Origin: Methanobacteriota archaeon
GTDB taxonomy: Archaea; Thermoplasmatota; Poseidoniia; Poseidoniales; Thalassarchaeaceae
NCBI GenBank assembly: GCA_011523055.1
Contig: WTHQ01000037.1
Coordinates: forward strand, 3,210-67,209
DNA: 64,000 nt
Direction of reading: 5' to 3'
The translations under genes and the position numbers were made by a program. Positions 1,640 through 64,000 of the stretch are shown one piece after another. Under the pieces are notes generated by a model. That model did not search any database. It was not told the origin of the DNA and saw only the letters and a list, made by a program, of their open reading frames with translations. Each line of letters begins with the position of its first letter. Position 1 is the stretch's first letter.

Positions 1640-1879
1640 TCAGAATTTTTGTTCAGGCTCTGGCTCAGGCTCTTCCTTCCTTCTCGATGGCATGGAAGGC
1701 ATGGATAGACCCCCTGAGAAGAGGAGGGATGCTGAAACGGCTATTGAGCCGAAGCCGGCACCTACCTTGACGAGGTCACCAGTGTCACCAGTGAGTACGA
1801 ACGCATCAAGGAGTGTGATCGCTCCTATTGCTCCAGAGAGGATGATGGGCATCATTGGTTTTGCGTCGGCTTCACTCAT
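1640..1879 (-). CDS. Small Gly/Ala-rich hydrophobic protein (79 aa) with an EPEPEPEQ tail, immediately upstream of the 1..1597 gene
   Basis: ORF-track ORF. Glycine-zipper-like hydrophobic core (ILSGAIGAITLL, GAGFGSIAVSASLLFSGG). It sits 43 nt from the downstream gene, suggesting co-transcription. Confidence 0.4.
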   Translation of the reverse strand: MSEADAKPMMPIILSGAIGAITLLDAFVLTGDTGDLVKVGAGFGSIAVSASLLFSGGLSMPSMPSRRKEEPEPEPEQKF

Positions 1880-2006: not shown

Positions 2007-2309
2007 GTGCTACTGCGGTGCCACATGAGTGGGAGATCCAAGATGATCAGGAAGATGGGTTTCACGCTTCGGTCCTCGTTATCTTGGATTCGTCCCGCTG
2101 CAGCAGCCGTCATTGCTTATGCAGTGCTCGATTTAGTTGAATTGTGGCAATGGGGAGGGGTCTTTCTTCTCATTTATCTCATGGAGATTGTCTCCGTTTA
2201 CCTCGCGGTTCCCAGCTCAGACGGGGATGACTACGACAACGAAGGTGGACTCTCGGGGGAAGTGTCCAAAGGAAAGAAGAAGCTCCCCAAGCTAAAGAAG
2301 AAGTTCTAG
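2007..2309 (+). CDS. Small putative two-TM protein with an acidic segment and a Lys-rich C-terminal tail (KGKKKLPKLKKKF)
   Basis: ORF-track ORF. Two hydrophobic helices. No known motif, and the start is uncertain (several in-frame Met). Confidence 0.3.
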   Translation: MLLRCHMSGRSKMIRKMGFTLRSSLSWIRPAAAAVIAYAVLDLVELWQWGGVFLLIYLMEIVSVYLAVPSSDGDDYDNEGGLSGEVSKGKKKLPKLKKKF

Positions 2310-2310
2310 C

Positions 2311-3519
2311 TCAAATTTCACCCAGTGTGATTATGACAGTCTGTTTCCGCGTCCTCCTGACGTTGAATCCTCCATCCACGAGCATTTCCTCGACCAGATC
2401 CAGCACGCGCTGTGTAACGTCCAACTGGACACCCCAGTATGCAACCTCGCCCTCTGAGTTGCCTGAGAACAGATGATCTCCATCTTCGCTGAACCTGACG
2501 TCATTTATGGAGCCCCTGTTCCCCCTCAGAGTCTTTCGCTCCACACATGTCTCGAGATCCCATAGCCTGATTGTGTTGTCCTTGGAGGCGCTAGCCATTA
2601 ACCTGTGATCGGGTGAAATTGAGATAGCGTGGACATCTCCTGAGTGACCGGTGAAGGTGCCAGTCATTTCCCGTTGGTGGGAATTCCATTTCTGAATCTG
2701 CTTGGCACTCCCAGCGATTATCACCGTTCTCTCGTCATCCAGCATTTTCACGGCCTTGATGGGGTTTGAGAATTCACTTGTTCCGGAGAGATGGGTGTGG
2801 TCTTGTGGCCTCCAGACGTTGACCGACCCGTCGTCACTACCACTTACTAGGGTCATACCGCTCGGTGAGAAGGCTAGCGAGGTGACCGTTCCATCGTGAG
2901 CTCGGAATTCGCTCCTTGTCTCGAGTGTGTCCAAATCCGATATCCTCACGTTCCCGTTGTAGAGGCCAGTGGCAATGGTACGTGTGTTGGAATCTACTGC
3001 CAAGCTGAGTACGCCAAAGCCCCCAAGATCGAGGGTGCTTTGATGCACACAATCAGGTAGTGACCAGAAATGGACTGTTTTGTCCAATGACCCACATGCC
3101 AGAATATCACGTTGTTCGGTTGTTTCTAGACGGGCGTTGTAGGCTGTCTTCTCCAGGGTCCTGACCTCGTCCTTCGATAGAGGGTTCCAAAGGTGAATCC
3201 TTTGGTCCATCCCCGCAGAAGCACAAGTAGAGTTTGCCACGAAGGATACCGATGTCACAGGGTCCTTATGCAAGATCCGAGAGTATAGAGGTCCGCCCAA
3301 CATAATCTCAACACTGTCCCTAGGCCCGCTGAGTGAGGAGATTTTCTCTTTGATCCTGAATATCCTGATGAAGTCGAGGGCAGTCTGCCGCTCGCCCTCC
3401 TCAGTGGCGATCCTGTCTTCCTCGATCTTCTCTCTGATGTTTCCACTGAGCCCTGAGAATGGATTCTCGGGCTTGTCTCGATTGGCCTCAGGATCTGTCT
3501 TTTCCACCATTCCAAGCAA
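2311..3519 (-). CDS. WD40-repeat beta-propeller protein
   Basis: Repeated WD-type motifs (HLWNP, VHFWSLPD, VNVWRPQ, IRLWDLET, VAYWGV) with GH..D spacing. No signal peptide. Sits 14 nt downstream of the giant surface-protein gene. Confidence 0.8.
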   Translation of the reverse strand: MLGMVEKTDPEANRDKPENPFSGLSGNIREKIEEDRIATEEGERQTALDFIRIFRIKEKISSLSGPRDSVEIMLGGPLYSRILHKDPVTSVSFVANSTCASAGMDQRIHLWNPLSKDEVRTLEKTAYNARLETTEQRDILACGSLDKTVHFWSLPDCVHQSTLDLGGFGVLSLAVDSNTRTIATGLYNGNVRISDLDTLETRSEFRAHDGTVTSLAFSPSGMTLVSGSDDGSVNVWRPQDHTHLSGTSEFSNPIKAVKMLDDERTVIIAGSAKQIQKWNSHQREMTGTFTGHSGDVHAISISPDHRLMASASKDNTIRLWDLETCVERKTLRGNRGSINDVRFSEDGDHLFSGNSEGEVAYWGVQLDVTQRVLDLVEEMLVDGGFNVRRTRKQTVIITLGEI

Positions 3520-3532
3520 CCCCTAGGACAGG

Positions 3533-6500
3533 TCATTCCTGCTTAGATTCCTCCATCGACCTGATCCGCTTCTTTAGTCGATCTCGAATCAATGGGGCCA
3601 TAAACAGGGCTGCAACAAGCACCAATGCGATAAAAGCTCCGAAAACTGCGAATGTTTCGCTCACTCTGGCGGCGACTGCTTCGCATTCCTTGTTGTTGTC
3701 GACATCGCTGGGGATGCTATTGAAGTCCAGTGGGTCCGATCTGCACCTTATCTCATCAAGGTCTGTCCACCCATCTCCATCATCATCGAGATCGATAATT
3801 AGTGTAGATGGGATGCCTTCAACCAAAAAGTCGGTGAGCCCGTCCCCGTCTGTATCCAGGTAGGCTGCGGGGTCGAGTGGGAAGGCGTCTGGACCCGCCT
3901 CACAAATGCCGTTAGTGGCTAGGCTGCCATCGCAAATCCCGTCATTGTCTGCGTCTGGATCGGCATTGTCTCCCATGCCGTCCCCGTCGACATCAGAATT
4001 CTCAGTTGGGTCTGCAGGGAATGGGTCTTCTAGGTCCGACGTACCATCGAGGTCACAATCTAGCTTGAGTGTGCAGCCCTCATGTTCGTCAACATTGAGC
4101 AGCCCGTCTCCATCTGAGTCTGTGTCCGCATTGTCACCAATTCCGTCGTTATCGAAATCACTCCAATCATTGGGGTCCTCTGGGTATTTGTCCTGGTCGT
4201 TGAAGACTCCGTCCCCATCCATGTCTGGATCCTCATCGTCGCAAATGTAGTCTCCATCGATATCGTCGGGCACGTCATTGGGATTCAGTGATGAGGAGTC
4301 GCATTTGTATTCCATGCTGTCAGAATACCCATCCCCGTCATCATCCGCATCCTCATCTCCGTAGAACGCAATCCATGTTGGATCGACCTGGTCTGCCAAC
4401 TGATCATTGTCTCTGTCCATCGGTACGTCTGGGTCGAAGGGCGCGGGATCCTCCCCCCTTGAGCAGACGTTGGGGACCTCGTTGCTACCATCGCAAAACC
4501 CGTCGCCATCCGAATCAGGGTTGAGGGGGTCGGTGCCGCGGTCCGAGGCCGAGATGTAGACCCCGGTGCCGGTCTCTACCGAGTCGTCCAACCCATCTCC
4601 GTCATCGTCTTGGTCTTCGATGAATATTACTGCGGCGTCTTCGGGCAGGTCGTCCCATAGCCCGTCGCCATCAGAATCTCTCGGTAGAGAAGGGTCAGTC
4701 GGATATGGATCTGGCCCGGCTGTACAGGCTTCTCTCTGATAGGGCCCATCACAGATTCCGTCGCCATCTGAGTCCACAACTGTTGGGTCTGTGCCTGTGG
4801 CTAACTCATCCGAATCAAGCACTCCGTCGTTGTCATCATCAGTATCTGATAGGTCCCCCACCGTATCTCCGTCAGTATCAAGCCAGTCAGACGGGTCTAG
4901 TGGGAAGTCGTCCTCGGTGTCCAGGAAGCCGTCATTGTCATCATCCTCATCAGCGACAGCGGGGCCTTCACCATCAAAGTCATCATCTGCCAACATGTCT
5001 CCATCTGTGTCAACAGGGACCTCTGGGTCCAAGGGGTCAGGATCTGGCCCATGGGAACAGGTCCCCGGCACCGAATTGACGCCGTCGCAGAATCCATCAT
5101 CATCAGTGTCTTCATCCAGAGATGACGAGCCCAAGGTTGCCTCTTGGAGATCGCTCATCCCATCGTTGTCGTCATCCAGATCGGAGGTCATTTCCGTGAA
5201 GGCGGAGATGCTCTCTGGAACCCAGTCTGGAATCCCATCCAAGTCATAGTCAGATAGAACTGCCAACTCGATTTCAATAGTCGCGATGGTTCCGCTTGAG
5301 TTGACCGCTGACACAGTGTACGTACTCAATGGGGTCACCTGTAGGGGAGTGCCAGAGATGGTGCCAGTAACTGGTGAAATCTCCAAGCCAAACGGCAGTT
5401 GTGGGCTTATAGACCATGAGACGGCCGAGTTGTTGGTTGCGTTCTTGATAACCCAGAGATCGCTGCCAGTCCCATCATTCGCGTCAAAGTAGAGGTTCCT
5501 TTCGAGGAAGACATATCCAGTATTTCGCCCTGATTCGCTTGATTGTGACCCTGCCCTAACATCGCTGATCATACTCACCGTAAAATCGGAAAGGTCGAGG
5601 GAATGAGGCTCATACCCATTTCCGTCTGTTGACGCAGTGAAGTAAACTATCCCATCGTCACTAGTTGTAAACCCACTATGTTGACCTGGATATGAGGATA
5701 TTGAGCCGGCTTTTAGGTCAGAGGTTAGCCATGCAGTGGCATTGTCTGGCGAGTATAGCCACAGCTCATTTCCCGATTGGCCGTCGTTCGCTGAGAACCC
5801 AACGACTTGCCCTAGCCTGTGGATGCCAGAGGAAGTGGATCCAGGGTTGCTACCACTGGACCCGGGCCTCAAATCTGTATGACGTTGACAGGAGTTGGAT
5901 GATGAGTCATAGGACCAGAGCTCTGCCCCATGACCCTCGTCTCTTGCCGAGAAGTATGCCTTCGTTCCGAATATCGCGATTTCACCGGAGCTGACACTCG
6001 GTTGGCCACTAGAGCTGCCGGGCCATATGTCACACAGAAGGGTGGCTCCCGATTCGAGGCTGTCTATGTCAATTCCCCAGAGTTCAGTGCCGGAATTACC
6101 GTCATTCGCGTCGAAAATTACAATGCTGCCCACCTGTTGGAAACCCAGTTGGAATCCTGGTAGACTCGGAGAATTACCCCCGTTTAGATCGCCGAGTGAC
6201 GAGAACGAGCCAGTGGTGGCATCTACAACCCACGGCTCGTATCCTGAGGTGCCGTCCTGGGCATCGAACAAGAGCCAGCGATCATTGATTGCATGCAGCC
6301 CTGAGAAGGTTCCCGGGTCAGAGCCTTGCTGGCCGGGATTAAGGTCTGCCACCATTTGAGATATCCCTGTCGCTGGATCGTGGCTCCAGAGCTCATTTCC
6401 GTTAACCCCGTCATCAGCGTTGAACCAAATCTTCCCAGCCAGTGGCACCAGACCTGTGGTGCTGCCTGGATTGCTCCCTGAAATGCCCTGTCGGATGTCC

Positions 6501-7129
6501 ACGACCATCCAGTGGCTGTTGTTGGAGGGGTCATAGGCCCAAACCTCTGGCCCTGAGGATTGATCTGTTGCGTCGAAGTAGAGTACGTGATTGAGGGGGG
6601 CTATCCCCCCGAATTTTCCAATCTGTCCGCCCTGTGATGTTGATTGGGCGATTGATGTCAATTGATTGAGTGAACCCGTTGATGGGTCATACTGTTGGAG
6701 CTGTGAGACTGGATTGTTGGCGTCGAAATACAGCATTCCATCCATCGCAACCATGCCATGATTGGGTCCGAGGATGGATGATCCTCCTTGCAGACTGTAT
6801 TCCTTCGAGGGGGCCTCGGCCTCTGGGCAAACTATCGGCGGGCTGCAATCTCCATTTGCCTCGGCTCCGAAGGCTTGGAAGGCGTCGAAGTGAAGCTGGT
6901 CTATCTCACTTCCAAAAACCATAATGCTGGGGTGGTCGAAATTTGCCTCCAACCCGGAATCGACGTGTGTATCCATTCTCTGTGGGTGGCTGGTATATTC
7001 CGCGGTTTGCCCGTGGGAGAAGAACAATGCAATGATGATCATGATCGCGCCGGATCTTGATCGGCCATGCGAGAAGGTCATCGTTTCCCCCAACCCTCCA
7101 TTATTCAAAAATTCGATCCATTGAAGCAC
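3533..7129 (-). CDS. Giant (about 1200 aa) cell-surface protein: signal peptide, ELW-repeat beta-propeller region, Ig-like (He_PIG-type) domain, long Asp-rich thrombospondin-type-3-like calcium-binding repeat region, C-terminal TM anchor with basic tail
   Basis: Single 1198-codon ORF. N-terminal hydrophobic signal (the more likely start is M17, MTFSHGRSRSGAIMIIIALFF, at 7081). At least six repeats carry G[NT]ELW..D (GNELWSHDP, GTELWGIDID, GAELWSYDS, GNELWLYSP, GSDLWVIK). He_PIG-like stretch ISPVTGTISGTPLQVTPLSTYTVSAVNSSG. About 350 aa of DxDxDG.xDxxD units (DTDGDGLTD, DADNDGICDG, DSDGDGLLNVDE). C-terminus FAVFGAFIALVLVAALFMAPLIRDRLKKRIR. The many alternative-frame ORFs in the track are codon-bias artefacts of the Asp/Ser-rich DNA. 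Confidence 0.85.
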   Translation of the reverse strand: MLQWIEFLNNGGLGETMTFSHGRSRSGAIMIIIALFFSHGQTAEYTSHPQRMDTHVDSGLEANFDHPSIMVFGSEIDQLHFDAFQAFGAEANGDCSPPIVCPEAEAPSKEYSLQGGSSILGPNHGMVAMDGMLYFDANNPVSQLQQYDPSTGSLNQLTSIAQSTSQGGQIGKFGGIAPLNHVLYFDATDQSSGPEVWAYDPSNNSHWMVVDIRQGISGSNPGSTTGLVPLAGKIWFNADDGVNGNELWSHDPATGISQMVADLNPGQQGSDPGTFSGLHAINDRWLLFDAQDGTSGYEPWVVDATTGSFSSLGDLNGGNSPSLPGFQLGFQQVGSIVIFDANDGNSGTELWGIDIDSLESGATLLCDIWPGSSSGQPSVSSGEIAIFGTKAYFSARDEGHGAELWSYDSSSNSCQRHTDLRPGSSGSNPGSTSSGIHRLGQVVGFSANDGQSGNELWLYSPDNATAWLTSDLKAGSISSYPGQHSGFTTSDDGIVYFTASTDGNGYEPHSLDLSDFTVSMISDVRAGSQSSESGRNTGYVFLERNLYFDANDGTGSDLWVIKNATNNSAVSWSISPQLPFGLEISPVTGTISGTPLQVTPLSTYTVSAVNSSGTIATIEIELAVLSDYDLDGIPDWVPESISAFTEMTSDLDDDNDGMSDLQEATLGSSSLDEDTDDDGFCDGVNSVPGTCSHGPDPDPLDPEVPVDTDGDMLADDDFDGEGPAVADEDDDNDGFLDTEDDFPLDPSDWLDTDGDTVGDLSDTDDDNDGVLDSDELATGTDPTVVDSDGDGICDGPYQREACTAGPDPYPTDPSLPRDSDGDGLWDDLPEDAAVIFIEDQDDDGDGLDDSVETGTGVYISASDRGTDPLNPDSDGDGFCDGSNEVPNVCSRGEDPAPFDPDVPMDRDNDQLADQVDPTWIAFYGDEDADDDGDGYSDSMEYKCDSSSLNPNDVPDDIDGDYICDDEDPDMDGDGVFNDQDKYPEDPNDWSDFDNDGIGDNADTDSDGDGLLNVDEHEGCTLKLDCDLDGTSDLEDPFPADPTENSDVDGDGMGDNADPDADNDGICDGSLATNGICEAGPDAFPLDPAAYLDTDGDGLTDFLVEGIPSTLIIDLDDDGDGWTDLDEIRCRSDPLDFNSIPSDVDNNKECEAVAARVSETFAVFGAFIALVLVAALFMAPLIRDRLKKRIRSMEESKQE

Positions 7130-7229
7130 TGATGATTCTCAGTTTTCTTACATTCAAATTGAGGGATATAACACCCATAGGAGCCTGCTCATTACCTGTT
7201 GATGACTATTGAGGGGGTCTTCGCGGGTG

Positions 7230-8315
7230 TCAGATTCCTGGCGCTCTTCCAGACATGATCCGACGCCAAACTGGCGGTATCAGGCAGGGCCACCAGCAGG
7301 CATAGTATCCAGATGGGAGCGTTGGGGCGTCTTGATGCGGTCTCAGCCTCCAAAACGGAACTGCGGCGTGCAGGTGGTGGTCGCTGTGCCTGGTTAATTC
7401 TAGTAGGCTCCATCTAGACCACCTCGCTTCGGTGTTCCAAGCATGTTCGGATTGGAATCTCTTGTCAGAGTCCCCTCTCCTTAGTCCCCAATGCCTGATG
7501 TAATTTACGTATTCGAGGGTAAGTATCGCAATTCCAGAGAGTATGGCCCAACCCAATGCAAAAGATGCAGCCCATTGGTAACCAAGTTGATTGAGTGCCA
7601 GTAGTGCCATGAATGCTGTTGCCTGAAGTATTAGGCCCTGGTACGATGGGTTTGAAAGTCCCTTCCTACCTTTTTTGTTGTGTATCTTCACAGATGATGA
7701 GAACTGCCCCGGTATCGTCCTGAACCAGAACGACCAGATGCCCTCATCGACCCTGGCGCTGGCAGGATCCTCGTCCGTGGCGACGTTTTTGTGGTGGTTG
7801 TGATTGTGTTCCGTTGTGAAGTGAGGGTAATTTATGCTGAACAGTAGCATCCTAGCAAGCCTCCATCCCGGGCTTCTCGGCCTTTGGTGGCCTAGCTCAT
7901 GGGCAGTGACGATGGCAGAGGCTGCGGCAGCCAGACCAGTCGAGAGAGATGCTGCCAATAGCCATGGTGAGAGTCCCTCGGTGAATGCGAAGGCGAAGAA
8001 AGATGCTAGCATAATAAAATGCACAATCCCATGGGCCCAAAGAAGTGCGACGAAGGGTGTCCCGGAAGCACGAGGTGGCCTAGCAACCTTGGATTGCCCC
8101 ATTGCTACGTCGAGGATCGGACCTATGACCCAGATGAAGACGACTCCAAGCAATGTGTAGGCCCCGCCCAAGACGTTACCGGCAATAACCAATGAAGGAC
8201 TGATTAACCCCAGAAGGTGGTATGCCCATGGCTCAGGCGAGAGGGACTCCCCCGTTTCGGTCATGTGTTGTTGTCCCCCCTGACAGACAAAAAGGTGTGC
8301 TTGGGGTTTAGTCAC
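7230..8315 (-). CDS. alkB: AlkB-type integral-membrane non-heme di-iron monooxygenase (alkane 1-monooxygenase / fatty-acid desaturase superfamily)
   Basis: All four AlkB histidine signatures are present in order: HELGHQ (box 1 HELxHK), EHNHNHHK (box 2 EHNxGHH), NYIRHWGL (the NYIEHYGL motif) and LTRHSDHHLHA (box 3 LQRHSDHH). Multiple TM segments. Start overlaps the msrA stop (ATGA, 8312-8315). Confidence 0.8.
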   Translation of the reverse strand: MTKPQAHLFVCQGGQQHMTETGESLSPEPWAYHLLGLISPSLVIAGNVLGGAYTLLGVVFIWVIGPILDVAMGQSKVARPPRASGTPFVALLWAHGIVHFIMLASFFAFAFTEGLSPWLLAASLSTGLAAAASAIVTAHELGHQRPRSPGWRLARMLLFSINYPHFTTEHNHNHHKNVATDEDPASARVDEGIWSFWFRTIPGQFSSSVKIHNKKGRKGLSNPSYQGLILQATAFMALLALNQLGYQWAASFALGWAILSGIAILTLEYVNYIRHWGLRRGDSDKRFQSEHAWNTEARWSRWSLLELTRHSDHHLHAAVPFWRLRPHQDAPTLPSGYYACWWPCLIPPVWRRIMSGRAPGI

Positions 8316-13111: not shown

Positions 13112-14118
13112 GGTTCAGAGTTGATTACCATGGGCCTTGATGAGCCACAAGATGGGCACTCTTGCGAATTATCATCATAGATGTGCTTGCAGGCTGGGCA
13201 CACGCCTGCGAGCACGAGGGACCCCCTCTCCCCGTAATCCTCAAGTTCCCCTCTGTCCGATCTGGTAAGGTTCAGTATCTGCTCCTCGTCATCAACTTCC
13301 ATCTCAAATTTTCCAGGTCCACCTAGCTGAGTTAGGACCTCAGGGGGGAGAGTCATGGTTCCTGTCTCGTCAATTATTAGTTCTCGGGTGCTACTCAGGT
13401 CGGAGATGTCGACATCATTCCCATGTTGCGCAATGAACCTCCCCTCCCTCAACTCAAGTGATCGGTCCGCAAATGATGCTACCTCCCTGCTGTGGGTAAC
13501 AAGGAGGAATGCTACCTCTTCCTCCTGGTGTAACTTGGCGAACAAAGACAGTACCTCGCGGCTTGTTATGGGGTCCAGGGCCCCAGTCGGCTCGTCTGCG
13601 AGTATGAGCTTCGGATTCGTTATCAGTGCCCTTGCTATGGCGACCCTCTGTTGTTCTCCGCCGGATAGTTGAGCAGGCATTCCCCTGGACCTGCCGGCCA
13701 TGCCAAGCCTTTCCAAGAGAGCTTCGGCCTTCTTCCTGGCGTTGGCGGCACTGGTTCCCTGGTGCCTCAATGGCTGGGCTACATTGTCCAGGGCGTTCAT
13801 GTCCGGGAGTAAGTTGGCGTCTTGAAAGATGAATGATACAGTATCCTGACGCAGTTCAACGAGCTCGGCGCCTGTTAGCCTGTTTATCTGCCTACCCTGA
13901 AATGCCACGTTTCCAGCGCTGGGCTTCATTAGGCCACCAAGGCACTTGAGCAACGTGGATTTCCCCGACCCTGATGGGCCAACGACCGCAACGGCCTCGC
14001 CTGGCCGGACTTTCACATGCAGCCCTCGCAGCGCCACAACGTTCCCATCCAATGCGGATGATTCGTATACGTGGTACAACCCCTCTGCTTCGAGAATAAG
14101 ATTCTGGTTCATTTTCAC
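13108..14118 (-). CDS. ABC transporter ATP-binding protein (MacB/LolD-like) with a C-terminal about 100 aa extension ending in a CxxC...CxxC zinc ribbon
   Basis: Walker A GPSGSGKST. ABC signature LSGGEQQRVAIARAL. Walker B LILADEPTGALD. C-terminus CPACKHIYDDNSQECPSCGS. Start ATGA overlaps the permease stop. Confidence 0.9.
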   Translation of the reverse strand: MKMNQNLILEAEGLYHVYESSALDGNVVALRGLHVKVRPGEAVAVVGPSGSGKSTLLKCLGGLMKPSAGNVAFQGRQINRLTGAELVELRQDTVSFIFQDANLLPDMNALDNVAQPLRHQGTSAANARKKAEALLERLGMAGRSRGMPAQLSGGEQQRVAIARALITNPKLILADEPTGALDPITSREVLSLFAKLHQEEEVAFLLVTHSREVASFADRSLELREGRFIAQHGNDVDISDLSSTRELIIDETGTMTLPPEVLTQLGGPGKFEMEVDDEEQILNLTRSDRGELEDYGERGSLVLAGVCPACKHIYDDNSQECPSCGSSRPMVINSEP

Positions 14119-17100
14119 TCACCCTTCAACACTACTGCAAGATCCGAATTTAAAGCACGCCTGGTGACGAGTAGCAGCGCCGCAATCACGCTTACCAAGA
14201 CGATGGCATTCACGACAGCCAGCTCCATCCATGGCCAGACCAATGTCCGATCGACGACAGCCTGGGACCCCAGGAAGATCTGGAAGAGGAAGCCGAAGAT
14301 AGCGAAGAAACCATTGAACGACTGGGCGATTCCGAGGCCCAACAGAATCCCCAGACCCATGCTCATTCCGACGATGGCTAGAATCTCGAAGAGGACCAAC
14401 CTGATTATCTGCGAGGGGCTCGCGCCGATGGCCTGGAGAATTGCTAGCTCTTTCTTTCTCTGGGTCAACACGAGGGAAAGAAATACGAATGCAGAAGCTA
14501 CGGACGCCATCGAGGCTACTACGAACTGGAGGCTGAGTAGGCCTTGGGTGCCGAAGATCAGGCCACCATTCCTCTCGACGTCGGAGTGTGCGGTGTTCCA
14601 ATCCAGTGCGAGGCTCACACCCTCTACGTTCAGGAGCTCAGCACTCAGCCTTTCTAAGCCTAGTTTACAATCGTCGTCGGTTTGATCGCACACCTCAAAG
14701 AACCATCTTGGAGACGTGTATGCGTCCACGGTCGAATTGCCCGCGAGCTCCCTGTATGTCGACTCCCCGATCAATACAGCTTGGGTGGACTCAGATCCGG
14801 TCATCCCCGGGATCCACTCGTGCCTGCCTTCGTAGTCGAGGTTCGTCGAGGTGTACGTCGTGGATATCTCAAAGCCCGTCTCTGTGATGATCGGAGTGAA
14901 GGTTGGTAGGAAAATTTCTACAGTGCCATCCTCGATGTTGAAGAAGTCTGCAGCATTCTCGCCGATAGTGACCTTGGATGTCTGGAAATCTCTGATTGGA
15001 GAGGCTTGGTTATCCCAGATTAGCGTGTCTTCATGGCCCTTGAACAGGACCAGAGCAGGCACGAGCCCCCCGCCTTCTTGGGCCGTGACGAATGTCGACC
15101 CCACAGATGTCATCGAGCGTATCGCATCTACTGCGCTGTTGTCCAGCGAGGTCATGGCCGAATTTACCCTCTGTCGCGCGACATCCTCCGAGACAGGGGC
15201 CTCGAATTGGACCTGCAAATCGGCCCCGACCTGCGCTGAGGCTGTTCTCTCATCGACCAGGGTGCCTGTGTACCCTTGGACAGCGGCCAGCGTTACGATT
15301 GAGAGTGTCAAAAGCAGGATGACTGCCAGTCTGTTGACTGATTCGTTGGATCCGGATGACCTCAATCCTCTCCTGATGTCCGACATGGCTGGTGTCCACC
15401 CGACGATTTTCAGAACTATGCGCGGAGCAGCGCCTCCTATTCTACCCAAAACCAAAGCCCCACCGATCCACAGGGCAAAGGGCCCGAATAATGCAAGAAG
15501 TGAGTCCACGAAGAATCCAGAAATTATCCCTGAGGCGCCCCATGGCCCCCAACCTCCAGCAGTTTCTATGTAGCTTTCAATCGCCGCGAGGAGCCCTACT
15601 CCGAATGCGAGGAGTTGGAGCCATGTCCTTGGCTTCCTCGAGGTTCTGACCTTCCTTACGCCTTCGTCGATTTCCATTTCTAGGAAATCCTTCGTTCTAC
15701 CTCTTGCGACTAGGTATGCAATTCCGACGGTAAGGAAGAAGACGGATATGGTGTATCCAAGGCCCAAGGTTGGATCTACGTCCAGATCCCCTTTCTCAAA
15801 TGACATGAATCCAACTGCATCAAGAATCAGTGGGACTGAAAGTAGTGCTGCGACGTATCCAAGTATCCAACCTGCTATGGAGATAGCAGCTAGTTCCCTT
15901 AGCACCATGCCTCGCAAGCCTCGCTCCGTTCCGCCTATCACTCTGTGAATGGAAATCTCGCGCTTCCTCTGCTCGAGTGATAATATCAGACCATAAATGA
16001 GTACTGCGAACGATAGTATTACGATTGGAATCATGAGTATGTAGTCGAAGACTTGCACTAGGCCAAGGAATATCCTCAGAAAGACGATGGTGCCGGAAAT
16101 CAGGTCATTGTACTCGATTTTAATCTCGTTGTCTGGACCATAGCCCTCTGCCTCCAACGACTTCCTGTTTGCGTCAAGCCAATCGGCTGCGTCGTCTGTT
16201 GATGAAGTGGGAAGGAGGTTCCTGTCAATGGCGATTCCCAAGTATGCATGGTCGTTGACCACGAGGGTCGTTTTGTTTGATTCAGACAGGGCTGAATCCC
16301 CAACAATGACGGGATTGAACAGAAGGGTAGGGTTAGTGAAAGGCCACTCCTCGTAAACTGCTACGATTGTCAGGTCCCTCAGAGTCATAGTCACCGTGCA
16401 AAATTGGTAAACTCCAGCATCGAGGTCCCTCGTGATAATTTGCCCATCACACTCCTTGATTTCGCTACCAATTACCTGTGCGTCTGTGACATAGGTGAAG
16501 TTCAGTGAGTCTATGGTATCATTGACCCTTACCCCCGCCTGACTTGCAATCTTGCTGGGGAGTATTACCGGATTGATACCAGGCTGGTCGCTACTTGGCC
16601 AGGATCCGTAGACAACGCGTTTGGAATATCTCTCTGCCAGTTCGCCATCGTAGTGCGATGGGTCGACGATCCTCATGATTCTGTCACCATTGATGGACGG
16701 ACCGTTTTCCAGTGCCTCAGGATAGTCCCAAGAAACATTGTCCCAGTTTCCGGTCGGTCCGGAGACCTCAACCACATTGAGCGGTTGTGGTAGGGCAAAA
16801 CCCTCGTCGAAGAACCCCGAGAGTCGAAGGCCTTGTCTTCCGTAGACAAGCCCGCAATCGATTATCTCGGCACGGTCAAGGAGTTCATCACATACTGATC
16901 CCCATGTGACTGAGTCGTTCGTCCGAGTCGTCCAGTCTGTTTGGCTCGAGAAATCGACCTTCGCATCGTAGACCTCATCATTCAGAGAGTCTTGGAGCGC
17001 CCCTTGCGACAACCCAACGCCATATGCGAACACTGTGGTTATGACGAGCGAGGCAAGGAATACTCCAGCGAATATCGCCAGCCCCCTCTCCCTTCCCAAC

Positions 17101-17183
17101 CAAGCGCTCCTTACGGCGGAAGTGAAGTTAGGAGGTATGTCTGAAATCTGATCAGTTAGAGACCTCTTGCCTTTTGATTTCAT
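14115..17183 (-). CDS. Large ABC permease with two FtsX/MacB-type four-helix modules and two large extracytoplasmic domains (1022 aa)
   Basis: N-terminal TM helix, an about 330 aa external domain, FtsX-like TM bundle 1 (residues about 380-500), a second about 250 aa external domain, and a C-terminal FtsX-like bundle (LAILQAIGASPSQIIRLVLFE...). Overlaps both ATPase genes by 4 nt. Confidence 0.85.
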   Translation of the reverse strand: MKSKGKRSLTDQISDIPPNFTSAVRSAWLGRERGLAIFAGVFLASLVITTVFAYGVGLSQGALQDSLNDEVYDAKVDFSSQTDWTTRTNDSVTWGSVCDELLDRAEIIDCGLVYGRQGLRLSGFFDEGFALPQPLNVVEVSGPTGNWDNVSWDYPEALENGPSINGDRIMRIVDPSHYDGELAERYSKRVVYGSWPSSDQPGINPVILPSKIASQAGVRVNDTIDSLNFTYVTDAQVIGSEIKECDGQIITRDLDAGVYQFCTVTMTLRDLTIVAVYEEWPFTNPTLLFNPVIVGDSALSESNKTTLVVNDHAYLGIAIDRNLLPTSSTDDAADWLDANRKSLEAEGYGPDNEIKIEYNDLISGTIVFLRIFLGLVQVFDYILMIPIVILSFAVLIYGLILSLEQRKREISIHRVIGGTERGLRGMVLRELAAISIAGWILGYVAALLSVPLILDAVGFMSFEKGDLDVDPTLGLGYTISVFFLTVGIAYLVARGRTKDFLEMEIDEGVRKVRTSRKPRTWLQLLAFGVGLLAAIESYIETAGGWGPWGASGIISGFFVDSLLALFGPFALWIGGALVLGRIGGAAPRIVLKIVGWTPAMSDIRRGLRSSGSNESVNRLAVILLLTLSIVTLAAVQGYTGTLVDERTASAQVGADLQVQFEAPVSEDVARQRVNSAMTSLDNSAVDAIRSMTSVGSTFVTAQEGGGLVPALVLFKGHEDTLIWDNQASPIRDFQTSKVTIGENAADFFNIEDGTVEIFLPTFTPIITETGFEISTTYTSTNLDYEGRHEWIPGMTGSESTQAVLIGESTYRELAGNSTVDAYTSPRWFFEVCDQTDDDCKLGLERLSAELLNVEGVSLALDWNTAHSDVERNGGLIFGTQGLLSLQFVVASMASVASAFVFLSLVLTQRKKELAILQAIGASPSQIIRLVLFEILAIVGMSMGLGILLGLGIAQSFNGFFAIFGFLFQIFLGSQAVVDRTLVWPWMELAVVNAIVLVSVIAALLLVTRRALNSDLAVVLKGE

Positions 17184-17911
17184 TCCGCATCCCCCGTAGT
17201 TTCTCCCCAGGCTGATCGAATATCCGAAGCTGCAGTCTTTCCGTCCCTCATCAAGAGCATTCGGTCAGCCTTCGATGCCAAAATTGGATCATGAGTAACC
17301 ATCAGTACGGAAATTGGATCGTTTGGATCTGCGCAGAGTTCCTTGAATAGCGAGATTATTGATTCACCCGCCTTGACGTCGAGATTGCCAGTTGGCTCAT
17401 CTGCCAGCAGGAGTGGCCTTGATCCAGCAATGGCTCTGGCGACTGCGACCCTTTGCTGCTGGCCGCCCGATAGCTCATTGGGCATGAAATTCATCCTATC
17501 GGCAAGTTCGACTCTCTCCATTGCGGACTTGGCTCTTGTTTCTGCCTCCCGTGCTTCGACTCCTGCCAGTTCGAGGGATAGAATCACATTCTCTACGGAT
17601 GAAATGTGATTCAATAGGTGGAAATCCTGGAATATCCATCCGACTCCTTTTCTCCTGACGTCAATCACTTGGTTAGGGGCCTTTGTCCCATACGCCATAG
17701 GTGGCTTTGATTCAATTTTTATGGATCCTTGGTCCGCTCTCAATAGGCCTCCAATGATGTTGAGCAGCGTTGATTTCCCACAACCTGAGGGGCCCATTAG
17801 TGCGACAAGTTCCCCTTTCCTTAACGAAAGATCCACTCCCTTTAGGACCTCGAGCCTGTTTGACCCGGAACCAAAGCCCTTCTTCAGACCAGATACCTCA
17901 AGCATAGACAA
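17180..17911 (-). CDS. ABC transporter ATP-binding protein (MacB/LolD-like), the second ATPase of the operon
   Basis: GPSGCGKSTLL Walker A. LSGGQQQRVAVARAI signature. LLLADEPTGNLD Walker B. 243 aa. Confidence 0.9.
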   Translation of the reverse strand: MSMLEVSGLKKGFGSGSNRLEVLKGVDLSLRKGELVALMGPSGCGKSTLLNIIGGLLRADQGSIKIESKPPMAYGTKAPNQVIDVRRKGVGWIFQDFHLLNHISSVENVILSLELAGVEAREAETRAKSAMERVELADRMNFMPNELSGGQQQRVAVARAIAGSRPLLLADEPTGNLDVKAGESIISLFKELCADPNDPISVLMVTHDPILASKADRMLLMRDGKTAASDIRSAWGETTGDAE

Positions 17912-60880: not shown

Positions 60881-60949
60881 GTGGTTCAAAGAACATTTCC
60901 AATTGGAATAAGTGAAAAGTTCTATTTTCCTCCAGCCACAAAGCCCCCC

Positions 60950-63900
60950 ATGGTAAAGAGACTTGTGACGGCAGTTTTTCTAGGAGCGTTGATGATACTA
61001 CTGTCTACTAATTCGTTGTTGGTGGACCAGGGAACACAAACAGAAGTAGAGATCCTCTCTGATGAAATCCGCTTGGAATCCATCTCCAGCAACTCTCCGG
61101 GCCAAGTTCTGGGCCACATTGACACCCATGACACACTCTCGATCGGAAGGCAGTTCGCCTGCGCCGTCACTGAGAACTCCAGCGTGGTGTGCTGGGGCAG
61201 GACAGATTACGGTCAAACCGGAATCGGGACCTCGGGATCCCAAGCGTACCACAACATGACCTATGTGGATGCGCTGAATGGGATGGGGATCGTGGAGGTC
61301 TCGGCACACCTCGACCACGCATGCGGACTTACCTCCCAGGGGGTAGTCTATTGCTGGGGAAGCAACCAAAATGGCCAGATCGGCAACGGGCAAGTCGGAG
61401 GGAACGTACTCGTCCCAACTCAGGCCCTGTTGCCACAGGGCGTCGTCGCAAAGTCACTCTCGCAGGGACCGAGTGCCCACACCTGCATAATCAGCACCGA
61501 TGGCGACCTGTATTGCTGGGGCAATAACAACAGGGGGCAAGTTGGCAATGGTCAGATCTGCTTTGATTGGAATGGGGCTGTATTGTACACAAACCCATGC
61601 TACAATGGCCAATCTGGGATATTGACCCCTGAATTGATCGCCATGCCATCTGGTGTCGCTGTGACTTCTGTCAGCGTTGGAGGCGAGCACACGTGTGCCA
61701 CAGGCACTGATGGTGGGGTGTATTGCTGGGGATCAGACATGAATTGCAGGGTCACTGGCGGAGACACCGTTTCTGCTGACCCGATAACCGAAGCTCCTGG
61801 ATGCGGTTATTGGTGGTTATCAGATACACCACGCAAGCTTGCAATGTCAAACCCAGAAGTAACAATCCAGGATGTAGGGAACTTATCCTTCGTTCAGGCG
61901 GTCAACGGTTGGGTTTTCTCCTGTGCGATGACCGACACTGGTTCCGGGATTTGCTGGGGGGCAAACACCGAGAGCCAACAAGGGATCGGCAACAACAGCA
62001 ACGAGCCCTTTGCCGTGGTGCCGACGATGATTCAAGGCCCCCCGGGGGAAAGCATGACGAGCATGTCCGCCACTACGGCCCAAGCATGCGCCCTGTATGA
62101 CCAAACCGGAGCCCATTGCTGGGGTGACAACTGGGCTGGCAACACGGGGGACTACAATGGCTCGAACGACGTGATATGCAACTACCAATATGGAGCAGGG
62201 GGCGGTGGCAACATAAATTGTCAAGACCGTTCTGCACCCCATCAGGTCCACACAGGTGGGAATTACATGGCAGTGGTCATGGGTGCTGCGAACGCATGTG
62301 GCTTAGACTCATCAAACGACATCCACTGCTGGGGGGCCTATGCTTGGAACAATGTGAACCAGTCCTATCACCAGATCTGGTGGGGCACTCGTGTCCCGGA
62401 ACTCATGCAGCTCCCCGGTACCGCGAAGATTGCATTAGACGACCTCGATTCAGATGGCGACGGGCTGAACTCCCCATTCGACCTCTGGCCCGAGGGTTGC
62501 CCGTCCGGATGGTACCAAGACGCTCCAAACTCGTGTGCCGAGGCTCCTGCGGGATACTATGCCGAGGAGGGGCTGCCGTGGAACCTCGTCATTTGCCCGA
62601 GCGGAACCTTCCAACCTGATGGTGGACAGCCATCTTGCATCGATTCATCCCCTGGCTACCACGTTCCTGATGAGGGTGCATACTCTCAGACCATATGTCC
62701 CGCTGGATCATACCAACCCAACTCTGGATCCTCGAACTGCATCCTCGCTGACCCCGGTCATATGGTTGAGACTCCTGGCAAGACCTTCCAATCCCCATGT
62801 ACAATGGGCAGATACTCCTCAACGCCAGGGGCAACCTCATGCATGAGGGCGAGTCCTGGCTTCTACGTCGATAGCGCATCCGCTACCGAGCAAACACCCT
62901 GTCCACCAGGAAGCTACAGCTCCATGGAGGGCTCGGTCTCATGCTCCTCGACTTCGCCAGGGCAATACACCTCAGCCAATGCATCGACACAGCCTGAGTT
63001 ATGCTCACAGGGGTCCTACCAGCCAGACGCGGCCAGTTCGAGCTGCATTCTTGCTCCTGCGGGACACTACGTCTCCTCAGTCGGAGCCACATCGTTCCAG
63101 CCATGCCTGTCAGGTGAATATCAGCCCCTCGAAGGTTCAACGGACTGCGAGGTAACGTTGCCGGGGTACTACACATCCGGTGCTGGATCCGTCGAGTCTG
63201 TTCCGTGCCAACCAGGCTCGTACCAAGCCAATAGCCGGGCTGACATGTGTGTTTTTGCTATCCCTGGGTCATATGTCAGCACTGAGGCCGCTGTAGAATA
63301 CACGATCTGCTCTGTCGGAACCTTCCAGCCTAATCAGGGCTCATCTGGGTGTATGGTCGTAGAAGCAGGCCACTATGCTATCGGGGAGGGTGCTCAGAAC
63401 CAGATTGCTTGTCCCGTTACGACCTACCAACCCATGACCGGTCAGACTAGTTGTATCGACGTTGAAGCAGGCCACTACACGAATCAGATGGGGTCCTCAG
63501 AGCAAGTCCCTTGTGAGCCAGGCACATACCAGCCGATGGTGAAAACGACCAGTTGTCGTGATTCTCCAGCGGGGCATTTCGTCCCAGGAAGCGGTGCTAC
63601 TGAATTCATGGCATGCGTTGTCGGGACCTACCAACCAATCTCCGCCTCATCATCTTGCATCGAGGCAGATGAGGGTCACTTCGTGGATTCCACGTCCCAG
63701 CTAAGCCAGAAGCCATGTGAGAAAGGTGCCTATCAACCCAGTCAAGGCTCATCTGAGTGTCTTTCTGCAGACGAAGGGCACTTCGTCGATGCGATTGCTG
63801 CTACCGAGCAGACACCCTGTCCACCAGGAACTTACCAAGCTCTACAGGGACAGTCCTCGTGCACATTCACATCCACGAACTTCTTCACATCCGAGTCGGG

Positions 63901-64000
63901 ATCTGTAGATCAGACCCCCTGTCCACCAGGACAACATCAACCGTTGACATCCCAAACGGAATGCGTCGAGAAGCCCGATGAGGGCGGCCTGTTGCCAGCA
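60950..64000 (+). CDS. Giant secreted protein, 3'-truncated by the window (more than 1017 aa): signal peptide, RCC1-like beta-propeller repeats, then at least 25 tandem Cys-rich ephrin-receptor-like (GCC2/GCC3-type) repeats
   Basis: ATG at 60950, in frame without a stop to position 64000. N-terminus MVKRLVTAVFLGALMILLSTNS. About 7 repeats of ..C[WY]G.N..GQ.G.G (VVCWGRTDYGQTGIG, VYCWGSNQNGQIGNG, LYCWGNNNRGQVGNG, ICWGANTESQQGIG, AHCWGDNWAGNTGD). From about residue 510 the unit C.PG.YQP..G...C....PG.Y......... recurs every about 20 residues (CPSGTFQPDGGQPSCIDSSPGYHV, CPPGSYSSMEGSVSC, CQPGSYQANSRADMC). The minus-strand ORFs the track lists here are artefacts. Confidence 0.85.
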   Translation, partial: MVKRLVTAVFLGALMILLSTNSLLVDQGTQTEVEILSDEIRLESISSNSPGQVLGHIDTHDTLSIGRQFACAVTENSSVVCWGRTDYGQTGIGTSGSQAYHNMTYVDALNGMGIVEVSAHLDHACGLTSQGVVYCWGSNQNGQIGNGQVGGNVLVPTQALLPQGVVAKSLSQGPSAHTCIISTDGDLYCWGNNNRGQVGNGQICFDWNGAVLYTNPCYNGQSGILTPELIAMPSGVAVTSVSVGGEHTCATGTDGGVYCWGSDMNCRVTGGDTVSADPITEAPGCGYWWLSDTPRKLAMSNPEVTIQDVGNLSFVQAVNGWVFSCAMTDTGSGICWGANTESQQGIGNNSNEPFAVVPTMIQGPPGESMTSMSATTAQACALYDQTGAHCWGDNWAGNTGDYNGSNDVICNYQYGAGGGGNINCQDRSAPHQVHTGGNYMAVVMGAANACGLDSSNDIHCWGAYAWNNVNQSYHQIWWGTRVPELMQLPGTAKIALDDLDSDGDGLNSPFDLWPEGCPSGWYQDAPNSCAEAPAGYYAEEGLPWNLVICPSGTFQPDGGQPSCIDSSPGYHVPDEGAYSQTICPAGSYQPNSGSSNCILADPGHMVETPGKTFQSPCTMGRYSSTPGATSCMRASPGFYVDSASATEQTPCPPGSYSSMEGSVSCSSTSPGQYTSANASTQPELCSQGSYQPDAASSSCILAPAGHYVSSVGATSFQPCLSGEYQPLEGSTDCEVTLPGYYTSGAGSVESVPCQPGSYQANSRADMCVFAIPGSYVSTEAAVEYTICSVGTFQPNQGSSGCMVVEAGHYAIGEGAQNQIACPVTTYQPMTGQTSCIDVEAGHYTNQMGSSEQVPCEPGTYQPMVKTTSCRDSPAGHFVPGSGATEFMACVVGTYQPISASSSCIEADEGHFVDSTSQLSQKPCEKGAYQPSQGSSECLSADEGHFVDAIAATEQTPCPPGTYQALQGQSSCTFTSTNFFTSESGSVDQTPCPPGQHQPLTSQTECVEKPDEGGLLPA

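Follow-up and report, generated by a model that had tools for sequence, protein, structure and literature searches.

The archaeal gene described here raises a question of kinship: is its product, a large surface protein with an extremely acidic, calcium-binding-type region, a relative of eukaryotic matrix proteins, or does it belong with the surface proteins of prokaryotes? The gene lies on the minus strand of a 64,000-nt stretch of DNA (hereafter the window; contig WTHQ01000037.1 of assembly GCA_011523055.1, positions 3,210 to 67,209 of the forward strand) from a Methanobacteriota archaeon that GTDB places in the Thalassarchaeaceae (Poseidoniales), and a gene for a WD40 protein stands directly behind it. 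An initial annotation, made from the sequence by eye, described a propeller, an Ig domain, an acidic calcium-type stalk and a C-terminal transmembrane helix, and judged this plan closer to eukaryotic matrix proteins than to archaeal ones. The order of domains holds, with a signal peptide now added in front; the eukaryotic comparison does not. Our preferred reading, to which we give a probability of roughly 0.7, is that the protein is an adhesin on the cell surface of a Marine Group II (MGII; Poseidoniales) archaeon, anchored in the membrane as a type I protein. Residue numbers throughout are those of a 1182-amino-acid (aa) form that begins with the Met at position 7081.

That the acidic region might be generic low-complexity sequence was allowed for by the initial annotation itself. 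The region is about 520 aa long (not about 350, as first given) and 27.8% Asp, with 145 Asp and 28 Glu set against 12 Lys and Arg. The earlier count of about 30 repeats was too high: there are 23 Asp-motif units, among which we find 19 non-overlapping strict DxDxDG motifs. Counted with overlaps, DxDxDG occurs 24 times, whereas 2000 composition-preserving shuffles of the acidic region gave 1.17 ± 1.09 (maximum 8), an enrichment of approximately 20-fold; the longer DxDxDGxxD occurs 16 times versus 0.32 in the shuffles. By these counts, repeated motifs of the thrombospondin type 3 (TSP3) kind, DxDxDGxxDxx(D/E), exceed what composition yields.

The units are also ordered, falling into three sub-types with a fourfold super-repeat laid over them. 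Type A (DxDDDxDGxxDxxE...(G)TDPxxxD) has the pattern of bacterial TSP3 repeats, type B (DSDGDGxCDGx6-7CxxGxDPxPxDPxxP, 4 occurrences) contains an internal Cys pair, and type C (D.[FY]PxDPx[DE]WxDxDxDGxGDNxD) is close to the eukaryotic type 3 motif. Of the 18 Cys residues in the protein, two lie in the propeller; the others make up seven pairs in the stalk and a single pair in the N-terminal linker. All 18 are at least 95% conserved among 19 unique orthologues, and this pattern fits a disulfide-bonded extracellular protein. An AlphaFold2 (AF2) model of the C-terminal half has a predicted local distance difference test score (pLDDT) of 79.3, with approximately 80-90 in the stalk, and nearly no regular secondary structure; in this the predicted stalk resembles real type 3 repeats.

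The stalk is better conserved than the head, with per-column values of 0.75-0.91 versus 0.61-0.74 and orthologue identities of 74-85% versus 57-73%. A mere spacer would be expected to show the reverse. The faster evolution of the head would fit an exposed recognition surface carried on a constrained scaffold.

At the level of the family, the likeness to TSP3 repeats is clear. A profile built from 61 homologous C-terminal regions was compared with PDB sequences and matches COMP (cartilage oligomeric matrix protein; 3fby, E = 2.1e-25), TSP-2 (1yo8, E = 3.6e-19) and TSP-1 (1ux6, E = 4.2e-14), and it also matches BamM of F. johnsoniae, OmpA of C. gingivalis (5wtl) and EF-hand proteins, with the motifs aligned in register. 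A Foldseek search with the C-terminal model ranks 2rhp, 3fby and 1yo8 best (probability 0.90-0.95), followed by 1ux6 and 5wtl. Composition-adjusted BLASTP aligns 491 aa of the stalk (35% identity, E = 6e-29) with P0229, a Bacteroidetes type IX secretion system (T9SS) protein that scores 93.5 bits for Pfam TSP_3. Family profile and structure search thus agree with the initial annotation that these are repeats of the kind used by COMP and thrombospondins, with predicted calcium binding. The low-complexity explanation, tested by the shuffles and by the COMP and thrombospondin profile matches, did not displace it. As far as its sequence can tell, the stalk consists of TSP3-type repeats of the prokaryotic kind.

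Sharing a repeat is different from sharing a family. Thrombospondins and COMP (1UX6, 1YO8/2RHP, 3FBY) have the same predicted Ca2+ motif (D.DGDG.GD..D...D.DG) and the same Pro-containing linker (D.FP.DP) as the window protein, which differs from them in having no EGF repeats, no L-lectin-like TSP_C domain and no coiled-coil oligomerisation domain, and in its global arrangement. Since Pfam scans found neither EGF nor TSP_C, the protein carries the TSP3 repeat but is not a thrombospondin; it is a relative of the type 3 repeat, not of the thrombospondin family. The bacterial version (PF18884, as in the Capnocytophaga gingivalis OmpA structure 5WTL) shares DxDxDGxxDxxE/D followed by GTDP, Cys pairs within repeats, and the DSDGDGxCDGx6-7C element seen four times here; 5wtl was recovered by both the profile search and the fold search. 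What sets the window protein apart from the bacterial repeats is its sub-threshold PF18884 score (see below) and its far longer run (23 units), and it is an archaeal type I membrane protein, whereas in OmpA the repeats form a periplasmic linker. Bacterial TSP3 repeats are reported to bind Ca2+ in a disulfide-dependent manner (Dai et al. 2017). The Myxococcus proteins MtsC and CglD (NF047638, NF033765), which are implicated in cell-cell cohesion and gliding adhesion, likewise carry TSP3-type Asp repeats. They differ in having a MYXO-CTERM or lipoprotein sorting signal and no ELW head, and the window protein lies far outside both families (29 and 13.7 bits versus equivalog cut-offs of 350 and 400).

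The other two extracellular domains proposed in the initial annotation are recovered directly by database models. Membership of the ELWxxDGT family (NCBIfam TIGR04534) calls for at least 65 bits over the whole protein and tandem repeats of approximately 47-50 aa carrying F.A.D...G.ELW; the window protein scores 201.5 bits in 7 hidden Markov model stretches, and within aa 115-546 its sequence carries the F.A.D...G.E.W motif nine times, at intervals of 50-54 aa. An AF2 model of the head, made with a 57-sequence alignment, gives nine blades of four strands each and, after them, a small beta-sandwich (mean pLDDT 79, above 85 over most of the propeller; predicted template modelling score 0.74). Compared with the PDB by Foldseek, the head retrieves beta-propellers only, the best being the ten-bladed Vps10p domain of sortilin, and because the best TM-scores are 0.44-0.45, we conclude that the head has no close solved relative. 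The He_PIG domain (PF05345) scores 29.8-30.8 bits against a gathering threshold of 24, and 24.1-35.4 bits in the orthologues; AF2 places its strands at aa 555-608 with a moderate pLDDT of 61-74.

Both ends of the protein point to a type I topology. The predicted leader is a helix in the AF2 model (aa 9-21), and its basic and hydrophobic pattern is kept in orthologues although its sequence conservation is just 0.26. The linker that follows is modelled with low confidence, while its two Cys residues (aa 79 and 85) are 100% conserved. At the other end, aa 1143-1165 form the only strongly hydrophobic stretch of the protein (19-residue Kyte-Doolittle maximum 2.74 at aa 1144); in the AF2 model aa 1142-1178 are helical, orthologues keep the helix, and RDRLKKRIR follows directly after the hydrophobic residues. 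The anchor with its basic tail thus stands as first described, hydropathy and model both having failed to overturn it. We infer that the ectodomain is outside and the 17-aa tail inside. A processed anchor was considered and rejected: substrates of archaeosortase A (PGF-CTERM proteins) have a C-terminal PGF tripeptide, a transmembrane helix and a few basic residues at the very terminus, and match PF18204 or TIGR04126, but here there is no PGF motif, no match to either family and 17 residues after the helix, and no motif or family match indicates any other sorting signal.

Table 1. Features of the surface-protein gene and of the WD40 gene behind it (window positions, position 1 being the first nucleotide of the window).
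Feature	Position	Strand	Details
Surface-protein coding sequence	3533..7081	-	1182 aa plus stop; the longest open reading frame reaches GTG 7129
Putative Sec signal peptide	7004..7081	-	aa 1-26, MTFSHGRSRSGAIMIIIALFFSHGQTA, followed by EY; basic n-region, h-region of ~11 residues, small-residue c-region
N-terminal linker	6809..7003	-	aa 27-91; motif GDC(S/T)PPI(V/I)CP with Cys pair aa 79/85
ELWxxDGT repeats (nine)	5444..6808	-	aa 92-546; period 50-54 aa; predicted beta-propeller head
He_PIG Ig-like beta-sandwich	5258..5437	-	aa 549-608; PF05345
Asp-rich TSP3-type repeat stalk	3683..5251	-	aa 611-1133; 23 DxDxD(G) units, three sub-types, seven conserved Cys pairs
Single C-terminal transmembrane helix	3587..3655	-	aa 1143-1165, TFAVFGAFIALVLVAALFMAPLI
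Predicted cytoplasmic tail	3536..3586	-	17 aa, RDRLKKRIRSMEESKQE; basic juxtamembrane part conserved, end variable
Intergenic spacer	3511..3532	-	22 nt from surface-protein stop to WD40 ATG; AGGGG, no oligo-T run
WD40 beta-propeller protein	2311..3510	-	399 aa from ATG 3510; PF00400 141 bits

Put together, these parts suggest how the protein may work. It would be exported by the Sec pathway and its leader cleaved. The propeller, at the far end, would be a ligand-binding head, with polymers of particles, algae or cell surfaces as the likely ligands. By analogy with thrombospondin/COMP and with the TSP3 repeats of bacterial OmpA, each Asp motif may bind Ca2+ from seawater, and Ca2+ together with disulfides would then turn an otherwise unstructured polyanion into a stiff rod that holds the head off the membrane. 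The stiff acidic stalk would thus comprise both the Ig-like domain and a Ca2+-loaded, disulfide-locked TSP3 "wire". The transmembrane helix with its positive-inside tail would fix the protein in the membrane without archaeosortase processing, and the WD40 product is, conjecturally, a cytoplasmic partner. Calcium binding, surface exposure and adhesion are in this way suggested by comparison with better-known systems.

Several observations weigh against this account. All function is assigned from domains, and the head offers little help: to our knowledge, no ELWxxDGT protein has a characterised function, and a search of one literature library found no paper containing the term ELWxxDGT. Of the database checks proposed at the outset, those for TIGR04534 and He_PIG succeeded (201.5 and 29.8 bits), but the one for TSP_3 (PF02412, gathering threshold 25) returned no match on the protein or its halves at E values up to 10. 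The bacterial model, PF18884 (TSP3_bac), reaches 17.9 bits with the whole protein and 19.4 bits with its C-terminal half, in 4 stretches, and so misses its threshold of 25; orthologues score 23.4 bits at most, and the MGII paralogues P0018, P0125 and P0216 pass at 29-47 bits. A single-sequence phmmer search of PDB sequences gave nothing significant, with just kelch-like matches at E > 0.1. The stalk-family profile matches carry large compositional-bias terms, and the Foldseek TM-scores for the stalk are just approximately 0.11 because the overall chain path differs. Finally, the signal peptide and transmembrane assignments come from hydropathy and AF2, not from dedicated predictors.

The limits of the gene itself need one correction. 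The minus-strand open reading frame (ORF) reported at 3533..7129 is present, with 1198 codons counted from GTG at 7129, but translation probably begins at the ATG at 7081, for a product of 1182 aa. We favour this ATG because GGAGG lies 13 nt upstream of it and because the same Met start and the same length of 1182 aa recur in a 99% identical database protein (P0001) and in two orthologues (P0002, 79% identical; P0003, 72%). The remark that the DNA produces many spurious ORFs in other frames was correct, as the gene contains six antisense ORFs and one same-strand ORF of at least 100 aa. The antisense six (plus strand, 100-152 aa) lie at 3459..3863, 3906..4250, 4705..5079, 4791..5249, 5692..5994 and 6027..6359. 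Codon usage rich in Asp, Gly and Ser probably accounts for them, and automated annotation could wrongly take them for genes. Composition was considered as a sign of horizontal transfer and set aside, the GC content of the gene (0.51-0.57) not being distinctive against its flanks (0.48-0.54).

Which proteins are its relatives? Full-length orthologues with 65-79% identity occur in nine species-level metagenome-assembled genomes (MAGs) labelled Euryarchaeota or Methanobacteriota archaeon (UBA487, UBA552, UBA182, UBA171, UBA52, UBA558, UBA250, TMED192 and SAT1510), and more distant stalk-bearing relatives occur in MAGs of Candidatus Poseidoniaceae, Thalassarchaeaceae and Poseidoniales. Together with an archaeal-type wyosine-synthesis gene near the locus, these relatives point to a Marine Group II origin of the window. 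The stalk alone gives 3595 matches at E ≤ 1e-5 among 8000 candidates, spread over MGII, Flavobacteriia, Gammaproteobacteria and bacteria of the Candidate Phyla Radiation, and many of these are annotated TSP3_bac or TSP_3. The ELW head is likewise widespread outside archaea, in Planctomycetota, Bacteroidota, Myxococcota and cyanobacteria: the window protein's head is 28-37% identical to hundreds of bacterial ELWxxDGT proteins and has the same period of approximately 51 aa. In bacteria the repeats occur alongside T9SS, Calx-beta, cadherin, VCBS or RTX-type modules, in proteins that lack a transmembrane anchor of the window protein's kind, and the family name gives no mechanism. The combination of ELW head, He_PIG and TSP3 is found in other MGII proteins too (L013, L019, P0009).

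Within Poseidoniales, the stalk paralogues (e.g., P0125, P0216 and P0009) share the acidic stalk at 33-48% identity, often with He_PIG and sometimes with an ELW propeller, and an adhesion role has been proposed for them likewise. They differ from one another at the C-terminus, where MGII stalk proteins have at least four kinds of ending. One is PGF-CTERM (...NNTPGFGLVLATLAMLCAAMIVGRRRQ), with P0216 matching PF18204 at 22.4 bits and many relatives ending ...TPGFG...RRRQ; another is a transmembrane helix with an acidic or Pro-rich tail; a third is a transmembrane helix with a long Lys/Ala/Glu repeat and two HhH-like modules; and the fourth, that of the window protein's clade, is a plain transmembrane helix with a short basic tail. 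This ending and the WD40 gene behind it distinguish the clade from the other paralogues.

Some MGII TSP3-stalk proteins are giants of 1361-3871 aa with a large cytoplasmic part after the transmembrane helix (L014-L017, L027; P0009, aa 1245-1897). Long KAEAKAQADADAK-type repeats make up this part together with a conserved module, IKGIGPFIEEKLNALGIYTF...FPGRVKRDEW, which is present once or twice and weakly matches Cdd1 (30.5 bits), HHH_5 and DUF4332. The arrangement suggests surface proteins with nucleic-acid-binding-like cytoplasmic domains.

On the question of kinship, the initial annotation is not supported. TIGR04534, He_PIG and TSP3 of the OmpA (5wtl) type are standard prokaryotic surface modules, EGF and TSP_C are missing, and there is a large MGII family of TSP3-stalk proteins, many of them with PGF-CTERM. 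Rinke et al. 2019 (PMC6461757) count thrombospondin genes among the adhesion traits widespread in Poseidoniales, and TSP3-like repeat proteins have been reported in marine ammonia-oxidising archaea. The window protein belongs to the prokaryotic TSP3-stalk surface adhesins already known from Poseidoniales, and the one modest oddity of the locus is the invariant WD40 gene behind it.

That gene was confirmed as a WD40 gene: its product scores 141 bits for PF00400 in 4 stretches against a cut-off of 27, matches many other WD40 propeller families, and has no signal peptide or transmembrane segment (Kyte-Doolittle maximum 1.12). The distance first given, 14 nt to a gene at 2311..3519, needs adjusting, as the likely start is the ATG at 3510 and the spacer is then 22 nt (13 nt from the TTG at 3519). 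Outside the propeller, the protein has a conserved N-terminal extension of approximately 80 aa (NPF[SA]GLSG...ALDFIRIFR) and a conserved C-terminal extension (VQLDVTQRVLD...GGFNV[RK]RTRKQT). Two motifs in these extensions are invariant, NPF[SA]GLSG (followed by ALDFIRIFR) and GGFNV[RK]RTRKQT, and match no known family.

Conservation of the neighbour had been named as a check, and the result is uniform. In 23 of 23 orthologous loci, collected by exact-protein look-ups, a genome scan with the surface protein and a metagenome scan with a WD40 alignment, the WD40 gene is directly behind the surface-protein gene with a spacer of 22-23 nt. The upstream synteny (IMPDH, MsrA, desaturase) is conserved, and an archaeal-type wyosine-synthesis gene (Wyosine_form) belongs to the same conserved neighbourhood. 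Some loci have insertions, but the surface-protein/WD40 pair is never split. For example, L001 has a 940-aa helicase-like gene between IMPDH and MsrA (3371-6193), and L002 has a Glycos_transf_3/PYNP_C gene between the desaturase and the surface-protein gene (6588-7856). The two genes are probably co-transcribed.

The WD40 orthologues are 60-99% identical, and the next matches are generic bacterial WD40 proteins at 34% identity or less. The metagenome scan seeded with the WD40 alignment recovered the same clade only, plus one generic WD40 protein at 24% identity, with no intermediate relatives. Among the best 150 matches of a protein search, one full-length single-stretch representative (P0243) is accompanied mostly by giant multi-WD40 proteins, which is consistent with a narrow distribution though short of proof of one. 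No WD40 gene was found by tblastn (E < 1e-2) near approximately 65 non-orthologous TSP3-stalk loci, and there is none beside the closest paralogues, P0009 and P0018. A functional link between the two genes, as first suggested, is plausible: the adjacency is invariant, but the evidence comes from a single syntenic clade. Both genes are confined to that clade, and the adjacency may simply be inherited.

The invariant pair invites a reading in which the two products make up a split adhesion receptor that spans the membrane, with the WD40 propeller docking from the cytoplasm on the conserved basic tail of the surface protein and either coupling outside binding to the cell interior or helping to position or assemble the adhesin. 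Such a receptor is compatible with adhesion and adds a mechanism to it. The fixed order and the 22-23-nt spacer free of an oligo-T run speak for it, as do the survival of the pair where insertions break the upstream synteny and the WD40 protein's own conserved extensions. The distributions of the two proteins also coincide, in that the WD40-seeded metagenome scan recovered only loci also bearing the surface protein, and the related MGII stalk proteins with large fused cytoplasmic domains show that surface-cytoplasm coupling exists in the family. On the other hand, the evidence is confined to one clade that shares synteny across the entire neighbourhood (IMPDH, MsrA and desaturase), so adjacency may be inherited; the other stalk loci and the closest paralogue have no WD40 gene nearby; and the proposed docking site is just 17 aa, with a conservation of 0.59 that is not above the rest of the protein. 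We consider the split receptor unlikely. Its more specific form, in which the WD40 protein supplies in trans what MGII paralogues carry in cis as cytoplasmic domains, so that attachment is coupled to a cytoplasmic process, is a speculative and equally doubtful extension.

The general plan of the protein also recalls archaeal S-layer glycoproteins, which have a signal peptide, a large, very acidic ectodomain and a C-terminal transmembrane anchor. The window protein, with an ectodomain net charge of approximately -210, might accordingly be the main cell-envelope glycoprotein of its clade, its Ca2+-bridged stalks forming a wall as in haloarchaeal S-layer glycoproteins; it is single-copy within the window and present in every clade genome found. 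It is, however, limited to one MGII sub-clade, while other MGII have TSP3-stalk proteins with varied heads and anchors, which looks like an adhesin repertoire, and it has only five N-glycosylation sequons and no recognised lattice-forming domain, so we rate an S-layer role as quite improbable. The least likely proposal, which we hold to be very improbable, treats the acidic region as serving mainly to store or buffer Ca2+ or other metals, or as an Asp-rich low-complexity spacer. Its Asp content, the sub-threshold Pfam repeat scores and the contacts of the family profile with lanmodulin and EF-hand proteins (E = 5e-4 to 4e-3) could be so understood, but the motifs are ordered when compared with shuffles and fall into sub-types and a super-repeat, every Cys pair is conserved, no part of the protein is better conserved than the stalk, and its AF2 model has a pLDDT of approximately 80-90. 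The S-layer-type, WD40-coupled and cation-store readings all rank below that of a membrane-anchored adhesin.

Elsewhere in the window, a fatty-acid-desaturase-family gene (7230..8315, minus strand; PF00487, 97.6 bits) stands directly upstream of the surface-protein gene and is kept in all orthologous loci. This family also includes alkane hydroxylases and carotenoid ketolases. An alkane 1-monooxygenase trait is listed for Poseidoniales (Rinke et al. 2019, PMC6461757). On the other side of the pair, two small ORFs, 2007..2309 (plus strand, 100 aa) and 1640..1879 (minus strand, 79 aa), encode hydrophobic proteins with no family match; the first is convergent with the WD40 gene, its end lying one base short of the WD40 stop codon. 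The orthologous loci L001 and L002 have gene calls of corresponding size at corresponding positions. The 1049-aa product of 14115..17264 (minus strand) was considered as a second surface protein on account of its hydrophobic C-terminus and rejected, as it is an FtsX-like ABC permease (PF02687, 71 bits). An ORF of more than 1040 aa at 60881..64000 (plus strand), which runs past the window end, contains one DxDxDG motif.

Few planktonic archaea are as abundant as those of Marine Group II, of which none is known to have been cultured; how they attach to particles or algae is inferred from genes only. For this group, the locus provides a clean, full-length and well-conserved example of a TSP3-stalk protein, in which head and stalk are both defined and the transmembrane anchor is plain. 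Nothing in it overturns current views. It does clarify that "thrombospondin-like", as a label here, refers to a calcium-wire module of prokaryotes, not to a matrix protein like those of eukaryotes, and its invariant WD40 partner is a small lead on how the surface and the cytoplasm may be coupled in archaea.

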